Source: a virus
DNA: 64,000 nucleotides
IMG/VR virus record: IMGVR_UViG_3300034073_001700
Coordinates: 1-64,000 of that record
Reading direction: 5' to 3' (one strand)
Shown: one piece after another, positions 15,982-63,242 of the stretch
Numbering within the stretch: position 1 is the stretch's first letter
How the letters are laid out: each line of letters opens with the position of its first letter
Program-made: the position numbers and the translations under genes
The notes under the pieces: generated by a model
Database searches by the model: none
Seen by the model: the letters and a program-made list of their open reading frames with translations, nothing else
What the model was told of the DNA's origin: nothing

Positions 15982-17043
15982 TTAGCAACAACAGTTACTG
16001 CAAGGGCATCGCCAGCAATATGTTGCAGAACACTGACATTGTGCTCCTGGTGTTGGTGCTGGTGCAAAAGATGGGAAGAATGGTGGGAAGAATGGGAAGA
16101 ATGGGAAGAACGGGAAGTACGGTGGGAAGAACGGGAAGAACGGGAAGAATGGGAAGAAAGGTGGGAAGAACGGGAAGAATGGGAAGAATGGGAAGAAAGG
16201 TGGGAAGAACGGGAAGAATGGGAAGAATGGGAAGAAAGGTGGGAAGAATGGGAAGAATGGGAAGAATGGGAAGAACGGTGGGAAGAATGGGAAGAATGGG
16301 AAGTATGGAAAGAATGGAGGGAAGAATGGGAAAAACGGAAAGAATGGGAAGAATGGCGGGAAGAATGGGAAGAACGGCGGGGTAGTTGTAACAGATCCAG
16401 TTGTAGATCCATCAGATGTACCATTAGCATTAATAGCAACAACTGTATAAGTTTGAGATCCTGGAGATGCTCCAGGGTCATTAGCATCATATGATGTTGC
16501 TGAGGCTGAAATACCAGTATAACTTGATCCATCTGAACCAGTAATAGTAAATGATGTTAATGCAGAGCCACCATTTTGATTTCCAGTATAAGCAGACCAA
16601 GTAATTCTATTTGTATTGGCAGATAACGCTGAAGCGCTAACATTTTGTGGGTTTAATGGTTTTGTAGTTACCGTAACTGACCCTGATACGGTATTAGGGG
16701 TTTTTGCTGATCCAGAAGCATTCTTTGGGGTAATGGTAAAAGTATAAGATACTCCAGAGGCTAAACCTTCAAAAGTATAACTTGTTGATGTTGTATTTGC
16801 AGTATAGGTTGAAGGGGTGGTGGTTATGTCATAACTTGTTGCTGGTGGAGATGTTTCTGGCAAGGACCAAGATAAACTAACTGCTCCACCAGTTCCTGCT
16901 GCAGTAGCAGAAGAAGTTTTTGCAGTTTCCAAATATGGTCGATTTGAACCCACATTTGTTGCTGTTAAATTAGTAACATTAAGTGGTTCCAAAAAGTTAT
17001 CTTGTGCTGAGGACTTAATACCCCTTTTCTTTGCTTGTGCCAT
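15982..17043 (-). CDS. Fibronectin type III protein with (Pro-Phe-Phe)n tract and Cys-rich C-terminus
   Basis: Two FN3-like units (VSLSW...YTFEGL..GVSYTFTIT; ITW...YTVVAINANG), about 105 aa PFF repeat, CQCSATYCWRCPCSNCCC end; SD GGAG upstream. Confidence 0.8.
   Translation of the reverse strand: MAQAKKRGIKSSAQDNFLEPLNVTNLTATNVGSNRPYLETAKTSSATAAGTGGAVSLSWSLPETSPPATSYDITTTPSTYTANTTSTSYTFEGLASGVSYTFTITPKNASGSAKTPNTVSGSVTVTTKPLNPQNVSASALSANTNRITWSAYTGNQNGGSALTSFTITGSDGSSYTGISASATSYDANDPGASPGSQTYTVVAINANGTSDGSTTGSVTTTPPFFPFFPPFFPFFPFFPFFPPFFPYFPFFPFFPPFFPFFPFFPFFPPFFPFFPFFPFFPPFFPFFPFFPFFPPFFPFFPFFPFFPPYFPFFPFFPFFPPFFPSFAPAPTPGAQCQCSATYCWRCPCSNCCC
16066..16381. repeat. Coding tandem repeat, 9-bp unit (GGGAAGAAY on +) with 39-bp higher-order period
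   Basis: Directly visible; encodes PPFF-PFF-PFF-PFF units on the minus strand with synonymous variation at Pro codons. Confidence 0.95.
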
Positions 17044-29610: not shown

Positions 29611-31800
29611 CTATGTAAGACACATACTTCCTGTCCATGAGCCTCCGCTTGCATAGCATTCCCAACATGTACAGTTTCCTCCGCATCCAAAGTCAAAACA
29701 GTCAATAACTGGTGCTGCTACTGGTGTTGGGGCAGCAGGGCTAGGTGCTGCAGGGCTAGGCGCTACTGGTGTAGGCGCAACTGGAGTAGGTGCTACTGGA
29801 GTAGGTGCTACTGGAGTAGGTGCTACTGGTGTAGGCGCTACTGGACTTGGTGCTGCTGCTGGAGAAGGTGTAAAGAATGGGAAGTATGGGAATGATGGTG
29901 GGAAGAATGGTGGTGCTACAGGGCTAGGTGCTACAGGTGAAGGAGCGACTGGGCTTGGTGCTACTGGGCTTGGTGCTACTGGTGCAGGCGCTGGTTCGTA
30001 GCAACTTGTCCATGTACTGGAAAGTATTGAACCAGTATAGTCTGGTTGATCATAGCAAACTGTATAATTTGCGAAGCCAGAAGAGCATGAGAATGTGCCA
30101 TCTTCTTGAACTTCATTTCTGCAATAACTTTGAACTGGTGCAGGTGCAGGGGCAGGGGCAGGTGCTGGGGTTGGTGCTGGGGTTGGTGTTGGAGCAACTG
30201 CTACAGGAGTGGGTGCTACAGGAGTAGGTGCTACAGGAGTAGGTGCTGCTGGTGCAGGTGCTGGAGTTGGAGTGCTTCCACAATTCTGTGGTGTTGTGTA
30301 AACTCCGCCCTGTAAAGTATTTCCTGGTTCATCATTTTGACAAGCAGTCGTTAGTCCTGTTACTGCTGCTGATTCACTAGAGTATGAACCACTTACTGCT
30401 GTTCCATTAACACAACAAGCATAATAAGTTGTTAATCCTACTGGTGCAGGAGAAGCAGGTGCAGGAACAGGTGCTGCTGGTGCTGGTACAGGTATTGGTG
30501 CTTCACAGGTTATTGAAGGAACAGTTCCAGTACCACTTTGAGTATTGGTTAGAGTTGTTCCACATTGTGCGTCTAAGTCTAAGAATGCTAATTGTTCTGT
30601 TTCTCCAGCGCCAGTTAATTGAACGCCATCACAGCATCCTGTATACCACCATCCCTCTGACTGTACTGGTGCTGGTGCTGGTGCAGGCGCTGGTGCTGGC
30701 GCAGGCGCAGGAGTAGGAATAGGAGTAGGTGCTGGGGTTGGTGACCCAGAACACGTTAATGTTGGAATAGTACCATCAACTCCGCTTTGTTGATCTGTAA
30801 CAGTTCCAGAACACTGACTATTCATTAAGTTAAATGCTGTTGTAAAGTCAACTGTGCTTGTTCCAGTTACTTGTGATCCAGTGTCACTGCAGCAACCAGT
30901 GTACCAATATGTTGTAGAGGGTGAGGTTGGTACTGGGGTAATAACTGGTGCTGGTGTTGGCGTGGGTGCTGGTGCTGGTGCAGGTGTTGGTGTTGGAGTA
31001 GGGGTTGGAGTAGGGGTTGGGACTGGGACAGGTGTTGTAACTGGTGCAGGCGCTACAGGAGCAGGCGCTACAGGAGCAGGTGCTACTGGGGCTGGTGCAA
31101 TAGGTGCTGGCGCAGGTGTGGGAGCAGGTGTAGGTGCAGGAGCAGGAGTTGGTGCAGGTGCAGGTGCTGGAGCAATACCTTCATTTATATCTCCATAAAC
31201 AACCCATGTATTTGTATCAATTTTTAATACTGTTACTTTTCCATACTGCTCATCTATTTTTGCAGAAGTGCCTTTTGAATTAACCGTAACTCCATCTTCT
31301 CCAGAAATTGTTACATCTCCAGATCCAAGTCTTACTATCTCTACCTTATATCCATTATCAATTGCTTCCAAAGAATTTAGTGGTATTGTAATTATTGTTT
31401 CTGATGTGTTATCTACGGTTATTACTTTACCTGCATCGGATGCAGTGATTGTATAGTCAGATAACTTTGCCTGTATTAAAGAATATCCATTTATGTACTT
31501 CCATTTAGTCCCATCATAATATTGGACTTGATTTATTACTGTACCGCCACCAGATTGTTGCCTAACAAAACAAACTGCACCGTTAGACGGGGAAGGTAAT
31601 GCTAAATCACGTTCTTCTGGTGTTTGAAAATTATTTATTCCAGCCCTAGACTTTAAGACCTCTTCAAATGTGACTGGTGATGAAAATGTTTGGCTTGCTG
31701 TCCAGGTGTAAGAAGCATTTGTATTAATAGCACCACTAATTGCATACCAAGTACCGTCTTTATAAACATATGCGACTTTTCCATCTGTATTAATTGCCAT
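29611..31800 (-). CDS. Fibre-like protein with long Pro/Ala/Thr repeats and Cys-rich modules
   Basis: N-terminal fibre-type domain, (PA)n/(PT)n/(PVAPT)n tracts, three Y..CC..C..C modules, PPFFPPSFPYFPFF segment, Cys-rich tail. Confidence 0.8.
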   Translation of the reverse strand: MAINTDGKVAYVYKDGTWYAISGAINTNASYTWTASQTFSSPVTFEEVLKSRAGINNFQTPEERDLALPSPSNGAVCFVRQQSGGGTVINQVQYYDGTKWKYINGYSLIQAKLSDYTITASDAGKVITVDNTSETIITIPLNSLEAIDNGYKVEIVRLGSGDVTISGEDGVTVNSKGTSAKIDEQYGKVTVLKIDTNTWVVYGDINEGIAPAPAPAPTPAPAPTPAPTPAPAPIAPAPVAPAPVAPAPVAPAPVTTPVPVPTPTPTPTPTPTPAPAPAPTPTPAPVITPVPTSPSTTYWYTGCCSDTGSQVTGTSTVDFTTAFNLMNSQCSGTVTDQQSGVDGTIPTLTCSGSPTPAPTPIPTPAPAPAPAPAPAPAPVQSEGWWYTGCCDGVQLTGAGETEQLAFLDLDAQCGTTLTNTQSGTGTVPSITCEAPIPVPAPAAPVPAPASPAPVGLTTYYACCVNGTAVSGSYSSESAAVTGLTTACQNDEPGNTLQGGVYTTPQNCGSTPTPAPAPAAPTPVAPTPVAPTPVAVAPTPTPAPTPAPAPAPAPAPVQSYCRNEVQEDGTFSCSSGFANYTVCYDQPDYTGSILSSTWTSCYEPAPAPVAPSPVAPSPVAPSPVAPSPVAPPFFPPSFPYFPFFTPSPAAAPSPVAPTPVAPTPVAPTPVAPTPVAPTPVAPSPAAPSPAAPTPVAAPVIDCFDFGCGGNCTCWECYASGGSWTGSMCLT

Positions 31801-38879: not shown

Positions 38880-38947
38880 GTGGCGTGTCGTTTTGACTTT
38901 TGCCCTAAAAAATGAAATAATAGCAGTATAAAGAAAGGAAAACTTAA

Positions 38948-42844: not shown

Positions 42845-43025
42845 ACTAAATGAAAATAATACTATTACTTGTGTGGGCATTGTTCTTGTTGTCAATATTC
42901 CATGCCCCGCTAAAGTGATCTACCTCACAAATCTCAAAATATGAGAAAATGTCAAAAATAACTTGACAAACCCAAAAATAAATGAAATAATAAATACCAT
43001 AACCGAAAACAAAGGAGAAATACAA

Positions 43026-43193
43026 ATGGCAGTATCAACAGCAACTTACAAGGTAGGCGACCTCTACACCTCACAGAAGTCAAAGGTGACAGGCACAATT
43101 ACCGAAATCAAGCCAAACAAAGACGGAAGTTCCGTTCGTGTAAAACTTGATGTCAATGGTAGCCCACGCTGGACTACTTGGACAGCAAAGTAA
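43026..43193 (+). CDS. 55-aa SH3/KOW-like protein (start re-called to MAVST)
   Basis: SD AAAGGAG before ATG 43026; YKVGDLY...VTG.I..I. Confidence 0.7.
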   Translation: MAVSTATYKVGDLYTSQKSKVTGTITEIKPNKDGSSVRVKLDVNGSPRWTTWTAK

Positions 43194-43209
43194 TTCTCAA
43201 TACGAGAAA

Positions 43210-43238
43210 TGTCCTGAGCATGACAACTAAAACTGCTC
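43210..43238 (+). ncRNA. H-type pseudoknot element copy 1
   Basis: TGTC-CTGAGCA-T-GACA-ACTAAAAC-TGCTC. Confidence 0.6.
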
Positions 43239-43297
43239 AACTTGATTTTCTAACATTTTTGTGTTAGACTAAATACAACCCAAACGAAAGGATAACA

Positions 43298-43720
43298 ATG
43301 GCAAGAAATGGAAAAGCCATAAATGTCAAGATTGCTACAACCAAAGTAATCAAGGCACTTGAAACTAAGTTAGCCGAAATCAACAAGAATAAGGCTAATC
43401 AAAAAGTCAATGAGGAGAAACACTCAAAGGCTATGGAGAAGTATAATAAGGAAGTCGCTAAACTTGCGGTATCCGCTATCGCTAAGGCAACTGACTTGTC
43501 TGCTCACACTCGCTATAATGGTGAAATCGCAGTATCTTTCAACTTACCTAAAGATACTATTGAACTACCTGCTGAACCTGAAAAGGATTTTGATACCTAC
43601 CACGATTGGCAGTATCGTGAGATGATAGAGGAAATTGAGAACGCAATTCGTATTCTCAAGATGACAGATGAGGAAGTAGTTTCTACTTCTACTTACAACG
43701 CTATCGCAAGATACCTATAA
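43298..43720 (+). CDS. Hypothetical coiled-coil protein
   Basis: SD GAAAGGA, own promoter. Confidence 0.75.
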   Translation: MARNGKAINVKIATTKVIKALETKLAEINKNKANQKVNEEKHSKAMEKYNKEVAKLAVSAIAKATDLSAHTRYNGEIAVSFNLPKDTIELPAEPEKDFDTYHDWQYREMIEEIENAIRILKMTDEEVVSTSTYNAIARYL

Positions 43721-43802
43721 TTGGTTGGGGGAGGGTATTTGACTCCCCCTTCTAAAAATGCTAAAATTAAATAAATAACCCAATAAACAGAAAGGCAAGT
43801 AA

Positions 43803-43970
43803 ATGACACTCGGAGGATACACTTATCAAGTAGGAGATTTATTCACTACTTCTAAAACAGGTGTTACAGGAAGAATAAACTCTTTCACACCTATTCGTCA
43901 AAATGTAACTCGTGTAGGTCTTACACTTAGCAACGGCGCAAAGCGTTTTGCTATGGTAAAAACTTACTAA
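43803..43970 (+). CDS. 55-aa SH3/KOW-like protein, paralog of 43026..43193, not in ORF track
   Basis: MTLGGYTYQVGDLFTTSKTGVTGRI...; SD AGAAAGG. Confidence 0.7.
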   Translation: MTLGGYTYQVGDLFTTSKTGVTGRINSFTPIRQNVTRVGLTLSNGAKRFAMVKTY

Positions 43971-44123
43971 TACAATTGTGGCGGGTTTCGGGTGTGTAAT
44001 CGGAATTCCCCCCGCCACAACTAAAAACTAAATAGAATTGGGTGATCGTCTGCGTTCACGGCAAACTGCGACATAATTCATGGTTGTGTTGATCTTTTTG
44101 CGAAAGTCCCTTGACACTCCCTA

Positions 44124-44165
44124 ACGCCTGAGTATGGAGGAAATCCTTTAGCGTCTAAACTGCTC
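44124..44165 (+). ncRNA. H-type pseudoknot element copy 2 (with inserted hairpin)
   Basis: ACGC-CTGAGTA-(16 nt)-GCGT-CTAAAC-TGCTC. Confidence 0.55.
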
Positions 44166-44289
44166 CCCAAAAATCCCCTAGGGGGTGTGATAATAAACAC
44201 AGTCCAATATGTGAGATTATTTACGTACTCGACTTGCTTTCCCCCCTAAAAAATGTTATGATTAGATTATCTAAAGAAAGGATAACCCA

Positions 44290-44553
44290 ATGATAGCAAC
44301 CGCTATTGCTTTACAAGAAACCAGCAAAGAGGCAGTATATGATGAAACCTCAATGATGATGGCTTCTGCTTTATTTCATGGCAGACACGAGATGGATGAT
44401 GAACAATTCCAAAGAGCAATTTTTATGTATTCCGCTCACCTCTCTGCTGTTGCCACAACTCTCGCTACAAATGTCCTCTTGACAAAAGAGCAGGTAGATG
44501 AGATGATTAATACCATACAAGAAATGGAAACAATGGGAAAGGACATTGAATAA
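44290..44553 (+). CDS. Hypothetical protein
   Basis: SD AAGAAAGGA, promoter TTGCTT-17-TATGAT. Confidence 0.7.
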   Translation: MIATAIALQETSKEAVYDETSMMMASALFHGRHEMDDEQFQRAIFMYSAHLSAVATTLATNVLLTKEQVDEMINTIQEMETMGKDIE

Positions 44554-44999
44554 TGGAAATGACTGAAACATTAGTGCCTGAGCACTATAATCCAAATCAA
44601 TTGGTAACCTATAAGGTTATCAATAATGGTGAAACCACATATCCAACCAGCAAGGTTGTTGATATCGAATGGAAATTAGAAAGTGCACGGGCTGCAGATA
44701 GACAACTATCATCTCTAAGACTTAGTGTCAGCAACTTAGAAGACATGCTGCCCAACTGGTTAGAAAATGAACCAGATACTGGCGAGATTGTCTCTGACAT
44801 CTGTCAACTATTCGGATTCAATCCTACCAAGGATGTTGAGTTTGAGGCCACGGTAACAATTAGCGGAATCATAACTGTTCCACTTGCAGAACTAAATGAT
44901 TTTGATATTGATAGTGTTGATTTAAATATCGATGCAAATTCTTATTCACATGATGTCGATATTCAGAATGTAGAAGTCGACACAATCACAACGCTATAA
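44553..44999 (+). CDS. Hypothetical acidic protein
   Basis: TAATG coupling with upstream gene. Confidence 0.7.
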   Translation: MEMTETLVPEHYNPNQLVTYKVINNGETTYPTSKVVDIEWKLESARAADRQLSSLRLSVSNLEDMLPNWLENEPDTGEIVSDICQLFGFNPTKDVEFEATVTISGIITVPLAELNDFDIDSVDLNIDANSYSHDVDIQNVEVDTITTL

Positions 45000-45077
45000 T
45001 AAATTTGCGGGGTTCATGAAAGGCCCCGCAATGTACGCAGCATCCCTCTTTCATCCTTTCTTATAGGGATCTGCAAG

Positions 45078-45106
45078 GGACCTGAGCACGTCCACGTAAA
45101 CTGCTC
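45078..45106 (+). ncRNA. H-type pseudoknot element copy 3
   Basis: GGAC-CTGAGCA-C-GTCC-ACGTAAAC-TGCTC. Confidence 0.6.
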
Positions 45107-45177
45107 CAATCAATCTCCTAGCAGGTCGATCTTGAAAAGTCAAATTTATGGCGTGTCGGTGCATTAAGTAATAGGAT

Positions 45178-45206
45178 TTGCTTTTGTCGCTGGTTTATGC
45201 TAAGAT
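45178..45206 (+). promoter_or_regulatory. Promoter with TGTCGC-N10-TAAGAT (PafBC-like)
   Basis: One mismatch to TGTCRG; same spacing. Confidence 0.5.
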
Positions 45207-45233
45207 TAGTTTATCTACAGAAAGGAAATAAAA

Positions 45234-46244
45234 ATGGCTCACGAATTAGAAACGCAAAATGGCGTTGCTTCTTTCGCTTCTTTTAGAGAACCTGCTTGGC
45301 ATGGTCTTGGCACAGTTTTCACAGAAGAAAAAAATACAGCAGAAATGCTTGCTGCTGCTAATCTAAACAATTGGAATGTTAGATTGGTTGATGTTGAAAT
45401 TCCAAATACTCTTACATCAGATAAGAATTATTCTTATGTTGTAAGAACTAACCCTACCGATAAATCTCAGACCGATGTTCTCGGTGTTGTCGGTGAGCGT
45501 TATCATGTTCTACAAAATGAGGATTTATTCTCTTTTGGTGACACTATGCTTGACGGCGGTGGCCGTTGGGAAACTGCTGGCTCCATTCGTGGTGGTCGTG
45601 TAGTATTCGGCTCTCTTGCTCTTGAGCGTGAGACAATTCTTGACCCTAATGGTGTTGCGGATAAGGTAAAGACTTATCTTCTAATCAATACCTCTCATGA
45701 TGGGTCTATCGCAATTCAGGCTTCAATCACGCCCGTTCGTGTTGTATGCGCTAACACTCTCAATCTTGCGTTAGGTCGTAAGGGTAAAGGCCCTAAGCAA
45801 TCTTTCAAGATTAGACACACACAGACCGCTAACGGCAAAGTTCAAATTGCTCGTGAGGCTCTTGGTCTTGCTAATACTTACATGGACGAATTCGATAAAA
45901 TGGCTAAGGCTATGATTGAAAAAGAAATCACAGCACAGCAATTTAACGACATCGTTCTCGCTGCTTATCCTAAGCCTGACAGCGACAAGAAAATCGCTAT
46001 CACAAAATGGACTAACAAGATTGATGTTATCAATGACATCTACACAGGCCAATTTAATGGCATGATTGCTAACACCGCTTGGGGTGCGTTCAATGCGCTA
46101 ACCGAAAGATTGGATTGGCATCGTTCTGCTCGTGGTGGTAATACTGAGGCAATGCTCGCTGCTGCTTCTGGTTTTGACCCATCAATTACAGCAGAAAAAA
46201 ATCGTTTGCTAAAAGTTGTAAAAGATGTTTTAGCCGTAGCGTAA
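45234..46244 (+). CDS. DUF932 / phage-plasmid-like protein (TIGR03299-like)
   Basis: REPAWHGLG, ETAGS..GG, LINTSHDGS, TPVRVVCANTL, TAWGAFNALTE. Confidence 0.88.
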   Translation: MAHELETQNGVASFASFREPAWHGLGTVFTEEKNTAEMLAAANLNNWNVRLVDVEIPNTLTSDKNYSYVVRTNPTDKSQTDVLGVVGERYHVLQNEDLFSFGDTMLDGGGRWETAGSIRGGRVVFGSLALERETILDPNGVADKVKTYLLINTSHDGSIAIQASITPVRVVCANTLNLALGRKGKGPKQSFKIRHTQTANGKVQIAREALGLANTYMDEFDKMAKAMIEKEITAQQFNDIVLAAYPKPDSDKKIAITKWTNKIDVINDIYTGQFNGMIANTAWGAFNALTERLDWHRSARGGNTEAMLAAASGFDPSITAEKNRLLKVVKDVLAVA

Positions 46245-46255
46245 TAAAATACGCA

Positions 46256-46282
46256 ACTCCTGAGCATGAGTATAAACTGCTC
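46256..46282 (+). ncRNA. H-type pseudoknot element copy 4
   Basis: ACTC-CTGAGCA-T-GAGT-ATAAAC-TGCTC followed by T-run. Confidence 0.6.
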
Positions 46283-46633
46283 TATTTTTTATTGATCAAA
46301 AAATCGCCTAGGCAAACGGACAAATCGGACATAACATTTTTGATTTATTTTTATTACGTACGACTTGATTTTTTTGCTGGATTGTGGGATAATTAAATAT
46401 ACCCAATGAAAGGAAAATATGTTAGGCTATAAAATAACAGACATAGTAGATATGCAGATCTCTATTAATGAGGCTACTAAATATATACCCGCCGATGACC
46501 CTGAAACCAAGCGGGATCTATACAAAGCCTTTGACTTCTTACAAGGATTAATAGTAGAGGGCCACATTCAATAGTTGACATTCCCCTACATTTTTGCTAA
46601 AATTTAATTACGAACCCAATAGAAAGGCCCACG

Positions 46634-58576: not shown

Positions 58577-58650
58577 GGAGCAGTAGCCAAGTTGGTCAAG
58601 GCCCCGAACTCATAATTCGGTTATCGTAGGTTCGAGTCCTACCTGCTCTA
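58577..58650 (+). tRNA. tRNA with CAT anticodon (elongator Met or Ile2)
   Basis: Cloverleaf; CCGAA-CTCATAA-TTCGG; GTTCGA T-loop. Confidence 0.88.
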
Positions 58651-58670
58651 CAGTGATACAATAGAATAAT

Positions 58671-58743
58671 TGATCTGTAGTTCAGTTGGTAGAACACTCG
58701 ACTGTTAATCGAGATGTCGCAGGATCGAGACCTGCCAGATCAG
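58671..58743 (+). tRNA. tRNA-Asn(GTT)
   Basis: CTCGA-CTGTTAA-TCGAG; atypical T-loop GATCGA. Confidence 0.88.
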
Positions 58744-58747
58744 CGAA

Positions 58748-58821
58748 GGTCCGTTAGTTCAGTTGGTTAGAACGCTACCCTGTCACGGTAGAGGTCGTGA
58801 GTTCAAGTCTCATACGGATCG
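58748..58821 (+). tRNA. tRNA-Asp(GTC)
   Basis: CTACC-CTGTCAC-GGTAG; GTTCAA T-loop. Confidence 0.9.
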
Positions 58822-58823
58822 CA

Positions 58824-58896
58824 GAGAAGGTAGGTGCTGTATGTGTGCCAGGGAAAAGGGAAACACATGTATAGCAAGTTGCAACCCTACCTTCTC
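58824..58896 (+). ncRNA. tRNA-sized structured element within tRNA cluster
   Basis: GAGAAGGTAGG/CCTACCTTCTC outer stem plus inner TGCTGTATGTGT/ACACATGTATAGCA stem. Confidence 0.45.
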
Positions 58897-58904
58897 CCTA
58901 TTTT

Positions 58905-58976
58905 GGCACTATCGTCTATCGGCTAGGACATCGCCCTTTCACGGCGGAAAGACGGGTTCGATTCCCGTTAGTGCTA
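58905..58976 (+). tRNA. tRNA-Glu(TTC)
   Basis: TCGCC-CTTTCAC-GGCGG; GTTCGA T-loop. Confidence 0.9.
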
Positions 58977-59004
58977 CACTTTAAAGTTATGGTATTATAT
59001 AGAG

Positions 59005-63154: not shown

Positions 63155-63226
63155 GCCTCCTTAACTCAGGGGTAGAGTACCCGCCTTGTAAGCGGGTTGT
63201 CGTAGGTTCAAATCCTACAGGAGGCT
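63155..63226 (+). tRNA. tRNA-Thr(TGT)
   Basis: CCCGC-CTTGTAA-GCGGG; GTTCAA T-loop; acceptor GCCTCCT/AGGAGGC. Confidence 0.9.
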
Positions 63227-63242
63227 CTGATATAATTTAATT

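Follow-up and report, generated by a model that had tools for sequence, protein, structure and literature searches.

A conserved two-hairpin and pseudoknot RNA with an anti-Shine-Dalgarno loop in a family of lake phages of actinobacteria

We analysed 64,000 nucleotides (nt) from an uncultured lake phage, called the window here, which open a complete virus record of 120,142 bp bounded by direct terminal repeats (IMG/VR record IMGVR_UViG_3300034073_001700), and found that positions 45005-45107 on its plus strand form a conserved structured RNA. This module consists of two stem-loops, H1 and H2, and an H-type pseudoknot (PK), and H1 begins 5 nt past the TAA of the gene at 44553-44999. The H2 loop holds the exact complement of AAGAAAGGA, an extended Shine-Dalgarno (SD) sequence in front of early genes of the same phage. 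Both the structure and its conservation are firm. As to what the loop does, we tentatively favor a reading in which it would base-pair with the SDs of early genes, acting in cis on the operon that carries it and/or in trans on further early messages, a proposal built on complementarity in the sequence. The parts of the module are as follows.

45005-45031, plus strand: stem-loop H1, in which TTGCGGGG (45005-45012) pairs with CCCCGCAA (45024-45031) to give an 8-bp stem with an 11-nt loop, TTCATGAAAGG
45037-45074, plus strand: stem-loop H2, with 10 pairs, one bulged C (C45041) and a 17-nt loop, CTTTCATCCTTTCTTAT, at 45048-45064
45078-45106, plus strand: PK, with helix P1 formed by GGAC (45078-45081) and GTCC (45090-45093), helix P2 formed by GAGCA (45084-45088) and TGCTC (45102-45106), and an A-rich third loop

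In the H2 stem, GCAG (45037-45040) and ATCCCT (45042-45047) pair with AGGGAT (45065-45070) and CTGC (45071-45074). Its loop contains TCCTTTCTT at 45054-45062, and the loop core, CTTTCATCCTTTCTT, holds the 8-nt anti-SD word CCTTTCTT. The H1 loop contains ATGAAAG and an SD-like GAAAGG. A sequence-only reading made earlier of this DNA had described these three modules, H1, H2 with an anti-SD loop, and the PK; all are present, and all its coordinates are correct.

The minimum free energy fold of 45003-45130 yields H1 and H2 at -39.9 kcal/mol (z = -2.73), a stability reached by 2 of 200 shuffled sequences, and the H2 loop is predicted to be mostly unpaired, with unpaired probabilities of 0.54-1.0. 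Copies of the module were gathered from related phage contigs by the H1-loop word and the PK tail, with the H2 loop not used for selection, and the resulting 17 distinct modules were aligned. Across these copies the structure named above pairs in 99.6% of 459 cells, and compensatory changes on both sides occur in 14 of its 27 pairs (6 of 8 in H1 and 8 of 10 in H2). None of 500 shuffles matched the observed values, slid partners were only 30-43% paired, and RNAalifold independently recovered H1, H2 and P2. The 17 copies are related, so that independent events are fewer than the cell counts imply; there are still at least seven different H2 stems. While the stems covary in this way, the 15-nt core of the H2 loop is identical in 17 of 17 copies, an outcome that bears out the loop conservation named beforehand as a check, and the H1 loop is likewise invariant. 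The hairpins are far beyond chance, because they are conserved with compensatory changes in relatives. We conclude that 45005-45107 is a conserved structured RNA.

Rfam 15, applied to the whole window at the gathering score, returned tRNAs only, and a search of 42900-46500 at E up to 10 gave no match within 45005-45107. The latter search gave only a microRNA match and a SAM-II-like match at 43722-43774 (plus strand), both outside the module. The SAM-II-like match (22.6 bits versus 44 needed, E = 0.43) shares sequence with a G-rich hairpin and an A-rich, promoter-like stretch and is probably due to chance.

The same letters could be read on the other strand, with the H2 loop as the ribosome-binding site of a small minus-strand gene, or as inverted repeats that act as DNA, in the form of a protein site or a cruciform. 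The minus strand indeed reads AAGAAAGGATG, its fold is likewise stable (z = -2.52), and minus-strand open reading frames (ORFs) of 31 and 37 amino acids overlap the module. Nevertheless, we consider this explanation extremely unlikely and largely refuted. The minus-strand ORF that starts at the H2-loop complement changes frame or stops among the 17 copies, with stops at two related loci, L015 and L016; its peptide differs wherever the stems covary; and its ATG abuts the SD. Because the ORFs are not conserved and the ATG touches the SD with no spacer, the antisense ribosome site fails, which settles a second check set beforehand. The plus-strand ORF starting in the H1 loop also changes frame or stops among the copies. 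The G-U pairs, three in H2 and one in P2, are valid on the plus strand only: in H2, its variants and the PK they become A-C mismatches on the other strand. Stems that change sequence while still pairing point to a folded single strand rather than to a DNA site.

The genes and signals around the module with which the loop could interact are the following.

44274-44283, plus strand: SD region AAGAAAGGAT of the first gene of the upstream operon
44290-44553, plus strand: operon gene 1, 87 amino acids, no family found
44553-44999, plus strand: operon gene 2, 148 amino acids, no family found; its stop codon TAA (44997-44999) is followed by a second TAA
45178-45206, plus strand: promoter-like site, TTGCTT-17 nt-TAAGAT with TG before the -10, about 70 nt downstream of the module
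45219-45226, plus strand: SD AGAAAGGA of the DUF932 gene, an 8-nt complement of the H2 loop
45234-46244, plus strand: DUF932 gene, 336 amino acids
38931-42120, plus strand: span with four more early-gene AAGAAAGGA SDs (copies at 38931, 40033, 40788 and 42112), candidate targets in trans

The window contains six copies of AAGAAAGGA where 1.04 are expected, a count that none of 100 shuffles attains. Five copies lie on the plus strand, the four just listed and one at 44274, and an ATG follows each of them within a few bases; the H2-loop complement itself makes up the sixth. On the plus strand of 38.0-46.4 kb, all eight AGAAAGG words precede an ATG. Of 13 early-region genes, 5 have at least 8 contiguous loop-complementary nt within the 22 nt preceding their start, compared with 1 of 144 others. 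The loop complement is specific to early-region ribosome sites, and the match between the loop and the early ribosome-binding site, which the sequence-only reading had singled out, holds.

The upstream operon itself offers the longest candidate match. The SD region at 44274-44283 is the longest contiguous loop complement (10 nt) in the 1.3 kb upstream of the module, and at 15 of the 17 module loci the best complement within this distance is likewise that operon's first-gene SD (8-12 nt), with L092 as one exception. In all 16 loci where the first-gene SD could be located, its complement to the loop is 8-12 nt; that of the DUF932 SD is 8 nt in 14 of 16 loci and 7 nt in the other 2. At L011 the loop (CCC) and the SD (GGG) are altered together and keep a 10-nt match. 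Duplexes between the loop and early start regions come to -10.4 to -12.9 kcal/mol, compared with about -10 for the 16S tail motif; the 16S 3' tail of actinobacteria is textbook knowledge. The reverse complement of the whole loop resembles an SD fused to AUGAAAG, and three of the five AAGAAAGGA-led genes begin AUGAAA. The loop could therefore clamp both the SD and the start codon, although the AUGAAA match may be due to chance, because AUGAAA starts are common in A+T-rich genomes.

Contigs from RNA libraries connect the module with the gene before it. Metatranscriptome contigs cover the module in 4 runs from 4 studies:

45003-45073: X15, record 8
45000-45094: X16, a 95-nt contig
44967-45092: X17, a 288-nt contig in which this span is fused to 162 nt of upstream sequence from a relative
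44784-45108: X18, a 403-nt contig that extends 65 nt further

These RNA-library contigs link the module to the upstream ORF. Since the module lies 5 nt past a stop codon, no promoter was recognised ahead of it and the contigs are joined to the upstream gene, it looks like the 3' untranslated region (UTR) of the early operon at 44290-44999. The sequence-only reading had made it a candidate small RNA (sRNA); the conserved structured RNA stands, whereas a separate sRNA is a weaker part of that reading. Two apparent signals in the contigs were rejected: the stops at 45092-45094 in two runs, as a 3' end, coincide with a polymorphic site, and the lack of contig cover at 45109-45228 falls where relatives differ. 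Contigs in X16, X17 and X18 also begin at 45229-45231, 3-5 nt before the DUF932 ATG, and the X17 start is preceded by an adapter-like tail; these starts may mark an mRNA 5' end or may lie just where relatives diverge.

If the loop pairs as proposed, the exposed H2 loop would engage early SDs, the candidate partners being the first-gene SD of its own operon (10 nt), other early messages in trans, and the DUF932 SD on read-through transcripts. This pairing would hide the ribosome site and thereby throttle early translation, in a manner modelled on the icaR 3' UTR or on sRNAs with anti-SD loops. The loop's 5' half, CUUUCAU, might in addition mask an AUGAAA start or make a kissing contact with the loop of H1; the PK would probably close or protect the 3' end.

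In the icaR mRNA of Staphylococcus aureus, a pyrimidine motif in the 3' UTR pairs with the message's own SD, which blocks initiation and creates an RNase III substrate (PMC3868564). The H2 loop is similar in that it lies 5 nt to 75 nt behind a stop codon and its pyrimidine motif complements the first-gene SD of the same predicted mRNA (10 nt in the window). Unlike the icaR motif (UCCCCUG), the motif here, CCUUUCUU, sits in the loop of a covarying hairpin, is phage-encoded, is followed by a PK and matches a whole set of early SDs; its pairing is predicted from sequence. The Cuckoo RNAs (RSs0680 / CcsR) of Alphaproteobacteria are free-standing sRNA genes with 2-4 adjacent hairpins, each with CCUCCUCCC in its loop (PMC4615179). 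They share with the module adjacent hairpins, very variable stems and a fixed anti-SD-like loop, and the Cuckoo loops are thought to occlude ribosome-binding sites. In contrast, only one of the two hairpin loops here, TTCATGAAAGG and CTTTCATCCTTTCTTAT, is anti-SD, its motif is not that of the Cuckoo loops, there is no Rfam match, and the pair lies in a putative phage 3' UTR capped by a PK. The chromosomal 6C sRNA of actinobacteria binds mRNA directly, without a chaperone, through C-rich hairpin loops (PMC6486639). It acts in the phylum of the probable host; whereas 6C has C-runs in its loops, neither loop here has a C-run longer than 2 or an Rfam match, and the H2 loop is CU-rich and the exact complement of a private phage SD. 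The module is thus a member of none of the icaR, Cuckoo and 6C families, and the literature searched, which took in few subscription journals and no supplements, yielded no account of any phage RNA whose loop is anti-SD.

The DUF932 protein led to 448 related stretches in viral contigs, of which the best 80 were used and 330 nt upstream of the gene inspected; all relatives fetched in this way have a hairpin-plus-PK element upstream of DUF932. Among the 79 loci with at least 300 nt upstream, regular expressions found an H2-type hairpin in 15, a small hairpin with a G-run loop in 53, both in none and neither in 11, and a PK-like motif in 74. The G-run-loop hairpin (loop GATAGGGGGCTATC or TAGTAGGGGGCTACTA) overlaps the stop codon, for example at L002:2860-2880, L007 and L052. 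Because the G-run is SD-like, both hairpin alternatives, G-run and anti-SD, may concern the ribosome.

More loci were obtained by scanning for the H2-PK junction. CCTTTCTT also sits in loops on at least five other stems, all unrelated to that of H2 (L011, L033, the L096/L107/L162/L176/L200 group, L179, L232 and L154/L182), and the same PK follows each. Among the more distant variants, the loop's 5' half varies (UUCAU, UUUAU, CUUAUU) while the anti-SD half, CCUUUCUU, stays constant, which points to the anti-SD half as the selected part. All variant hairpins except those of L154/L182, which precede a different gene, lie upstream of DUF932, and some distant variants may thus be old homologues whose stems have been fully replaced. 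A scan of viral contigs with a 14-nt loop word gave at least 111 new loci; among those listed, one (L232) belongs to this family and the rest are chance matches.

Relatives also carry, roughly 3.6 kb beyond this place, a second family of hairpins with 7-14-bp covarying stems followed by a U-rich run and a promoter. Its loops are of the CCCUUUCU, CCCCUUUCUU or AUUUCCUUUCUUUC type, and it looks like a terminator with an anti-SD loop; no copy is present in the window. Examples are:

L002:6608-6639
L016:6624-6661
L126, minus strand: 6996
L027:6712-6740

Several results weigh against the pairing proposal. Across the 16 loci, loops do not match their own SDs significantly better than swapped ones (9.94 nt versus 9.83 nt, p = 0.32), and the energy version of this test is not significant either (p = 0.16). 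An incomplete run on 11 loci, in which 6 starts were missed, had given p = 0.059 for length and 0.001 for energy and is superseded by the 16-locus run. L015 and L033 have GGG SDs and unaltered loops. When duplex energies were computed over 157 start regions, the observed count at or below -10 kcal/mol was reached by 41 of 200 loops shuffled at constant composition; any CU-rich loop binds purine-rich start regions. The global shut-off by a 16S mimic that the sequence-only reading had put forward is thus left without statistical support. In hairpin loops, CCTTTC ranks first among the 20 permutations only modestly (29 versus 8-27), and SD strength entered into the choice of gene starts. Because nested folding must open H2, cofolding of the module with the start regions was uninformative. 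The RNA evidence consists of assembled contigs without strand, ends or level, which may derive from DNA. H2 is present at this place in only 15 of 79 relatives, yet all, including the 53 with the G-loop hairpin, keep the same early SDs. The anti-SD hairpin is therefore accessory and not an essential switch. Finally, the invariant H1 loop and the 5' half of the H2 loop may reflect contact between the two loops rather than mRNA targets.

This last point leads to a different explanation, namely that H1, H2 and the PK form a purely structural 3'-end element that ends or stabilises the early transcript, as a terminator, a tandem-promoter insulator or an exonuclease block. Its loops would be conserved through mutual contact or by a protein, and the anti-SD likeness would have no role in pairing with mRNA. 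We regard this as a possibility on the unlikely side. AUGAAAG in the H1 loop complements CUUUCAU in the H2 loop over 7 bp at -6.8 kcal/mol; among shuffled loops, only 2% of H1 versions and 6% of H2 versions attain this energy. Because both loops are invariant, such kissing lies beyond the reach of a covariation test. The position of the module, 5 nt past a stop codon and about 70 nt ahead of the next promoter, suits a 3'-end element, as do the different small hairpin in the same place in 53 of 79 relatives, the terminator-like U-run behind the CCCUUUCU-type loops of the second hairpin family, and the lack of significant loop-SD covariation.

The PK points in the same direction, since it follows many genes and precedes promoters, typically just past the stop codon. 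It has four plus-strand copies in the window and two more in the genome:

43213-43238, 44127-44165, 45081-45106 and 46259-46282, plus strand of the window: PK copies, that at 44127 with an inserted hairpin
65291-65314 and 76158-76180 of the genome (G000), minus strand: PK copies

The pattern is N3C-CU-5 nt-N-4 nt-...AAAC-5 nt, with helices that covary across 211 sources; P1 (4 bp) and P2 (5 bp) pair, and the CCU and AAAC linkers are conserved. When hits were chosen on P2, P1 was fully paired in 139 of 163 distinct hits with 30 different helices (control 7 of 585); when they were chosen on P1, P2 was fully paired in 139 of 152 with 15 helices (control 4 of 454). The PK is therefore real. It has no Rfam match, nothing on it was found in the literature searched, and it appears as an undescribed and very widespread motif that may serve in 3'-end formation, protection or processing.

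Other results speak against a structural role for the module as a whole. A terminator scan calls no site in 45005-45110, and no U-run follows either hairpin on the plus strand, H1 being followed by TGTACGCA and H2 by AAGGGACC. The minus strand has ATTTATTAT behind H1, which would allow a role as antisense terminator there. One RNA-library contig extends 65 nt beyond the PK. Variants without a matching H1 loop keep the 3' half, CCUUUCUU, while their 5' half drifts, and the loop match is specific to early SDs.

Pairing could also be directed downstream. As an insulator in cis, the H2 loop would pair on upstream read-through transcripts with the AGAAAGGA SD 165 nt downstream, so that DUF932 is translated only from its own regulated promoter. 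An anti-SD hairpin and PK do stand before DUF932 in the core group, L011, L033, the L096 group and L179, including cases with a different upstream gene; the 7-8-nt complement of the DUF932 SD is present throughout the 16 loci; and a promoter lies between the module and DUF932. We nonetheless find this improbable. The DUF932 match is shorter than that of the operon's own first-gene SD (8-12 nt), the hairpin of L154/L182 precedes a different gene, 53 of 79 relatives manage without the hairpin, and the read-through is hypothetical.

A still less probable role, which we rate as very unlikely, is that of a decoy for a protein or ribosome factor. In this case the loop would imitate the 3' tail of 16S rRNA, or the loops of H1 and H2 would jointly mimic an SD-anti-SD duplex, and the factor bound would be one that normally handles this tail; a platform protein, a maturation RNase, a toxin RNase and S1 are examples. 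The H2 loop has 8 nt in common with the 16S tail motif quoted in the sequence-only reading, and GAAAGG of the H1 loop can pair with CCUUUC. A precedent is P6 of OLE RNA, in which an exact copy of the 16S anti-SD beside an SD-like partner forms a stem inside a 600-nt RNA, mimics the SD-anti-SD duplex and binds bS21 (PMC12054373). Unlike in P6, the SD-like and anti-SD strands here lie in two separate loops, and no S21 match was found in the phage or in the actinobacterial (Corynebacterium) control genome. Moreover, the stronger kissing register uses CUUUCAU and not the anti-SD half, and no candidate partner protein was found, a RegB-like lead having failed.

That lead was the ORF at 43298-43720 (plus strand), an early protein of 140 amino acids. 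Its Pfam match to REGB_T4 (E = 0.005) was below the cut-off, and PHROG 1323, 'endoribonuclease', matched at E = 0.0017. The RegB identity was rejected: REGB_T4 is matched by 1 of 60 family members, and both the single sequence and a 60-sequence profile miss RegB among solved structures. A first, alignment-free model was poor (pLDDT 55). The AlphaFold model built from an alignment reached pLDDT 94.6 and shows a long helix, a beta-hairpin and two helices, with no fold match in a Foldseek search of the PDB at E up to 0.001. The family is very abundant in metagenomes, where its close hits number at least 7970 and, at 50% identity, its representatives 311, and this one neighbouring gene family places the phages in very abundant lake communities.

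The known phage shut-off of early translation uses proteins; T4, for example, shuts down translation of its own early messages at ribosome-binding sites through RegA and RegB. An extension of the pairing proposal, in our view unlikely, is that the module is an RNA counterpart of RegA/RegB, with an RNA effector in place of the T4 proteins. As a copy of the tail by which the ribosome docks on mRNA, it would accumulate with early transcription and silence AAGAAAGGA-tagged early messages and perhaps long-SD host messages, and the early-to-late switch would be set partly by the choice of ribosome site. Middle and late messages would escape, being either leaderless (TGGTATAAT 7-8 nt before the ATG) or GGAG-led, with a loop match of 4-6 nt. 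Were this so, an RNA that mirrors a private early ribosome-site tag would add a new layer to phage gene timing, in a phylum where many messages are leaderless and little is known of sRNAs. The sparing of leaderless late mRNAs, already part of the sequence-only reading, stands in part. In some operon-first genes the ATG does follow a TGGTATAAT-type or TATAAT -10 box at a distance of 7-8 nt, and those behind a TGGTATAAT-type box are probably leaderless, judging by this spacing; most late genes, lying within late operons, carry AAGGAG or GGAGG SDs instead. Examples of operon-first genes with such a box are:

22832, 23393, 34972, 35519 and 37435, minus strand
49698 and 55719, plus strand

The early block itself, at 38-47 kb on the plus strand, consists of short operons, each preceded by a sigma-70-like promoter and a repeated promoter-plus-RBS (ribosome-binding site) cassette, repeat family D12. 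The promoter-like site at 45178-45206, which drives the DUF932 gene, is part of the cassette common to 39987 and 40745. Gene calls were crude, limited to ORFs of at least 70 amino acids with starts picked partly by SD strength, which introduces a bias. Tail-less hairpins at gene ends seem usual in this block; a strong 11-bp hairpin (TTGTGGCGGG...CCCCGCCACAA) without a U-run follows a gene end at 43975-44021 (plus strand).

The module belongs to a family of actinobacterial lake phages of ~120 kb. A WhiB protein is encoded at 73047-73220 (minus strand) of the record, and WhiB matched only the actinobacterial control genome; by DNA, Streptomyces phages are the closest named relatives, with 67-70% identity in one gene only. 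Because of the WhiB gene and these relatives, the host is very probably an actinobacterium. A WhiB search of genomes, which did not identify the host genome, returned a single contig of a lake metagenome-assembled genome that is probably phage DNA. The G+C content of the window is ~37%. Elsewhere in the window, five tRNA genes (Met, Asn, Asp, Glu and Thr) lie at 58577-58977 and 63155-63227 (plus strand). Long in-frame repeat arrays with 9/12-nt and 15-nt units, of the AAGAATGGG and GGTGCTACTGGAGTA types, lie inside minus-strand structural genes at 16032-16416 and 29699-31176, and their sequence suggests collagen-like or Gly-rich fibre proteins.

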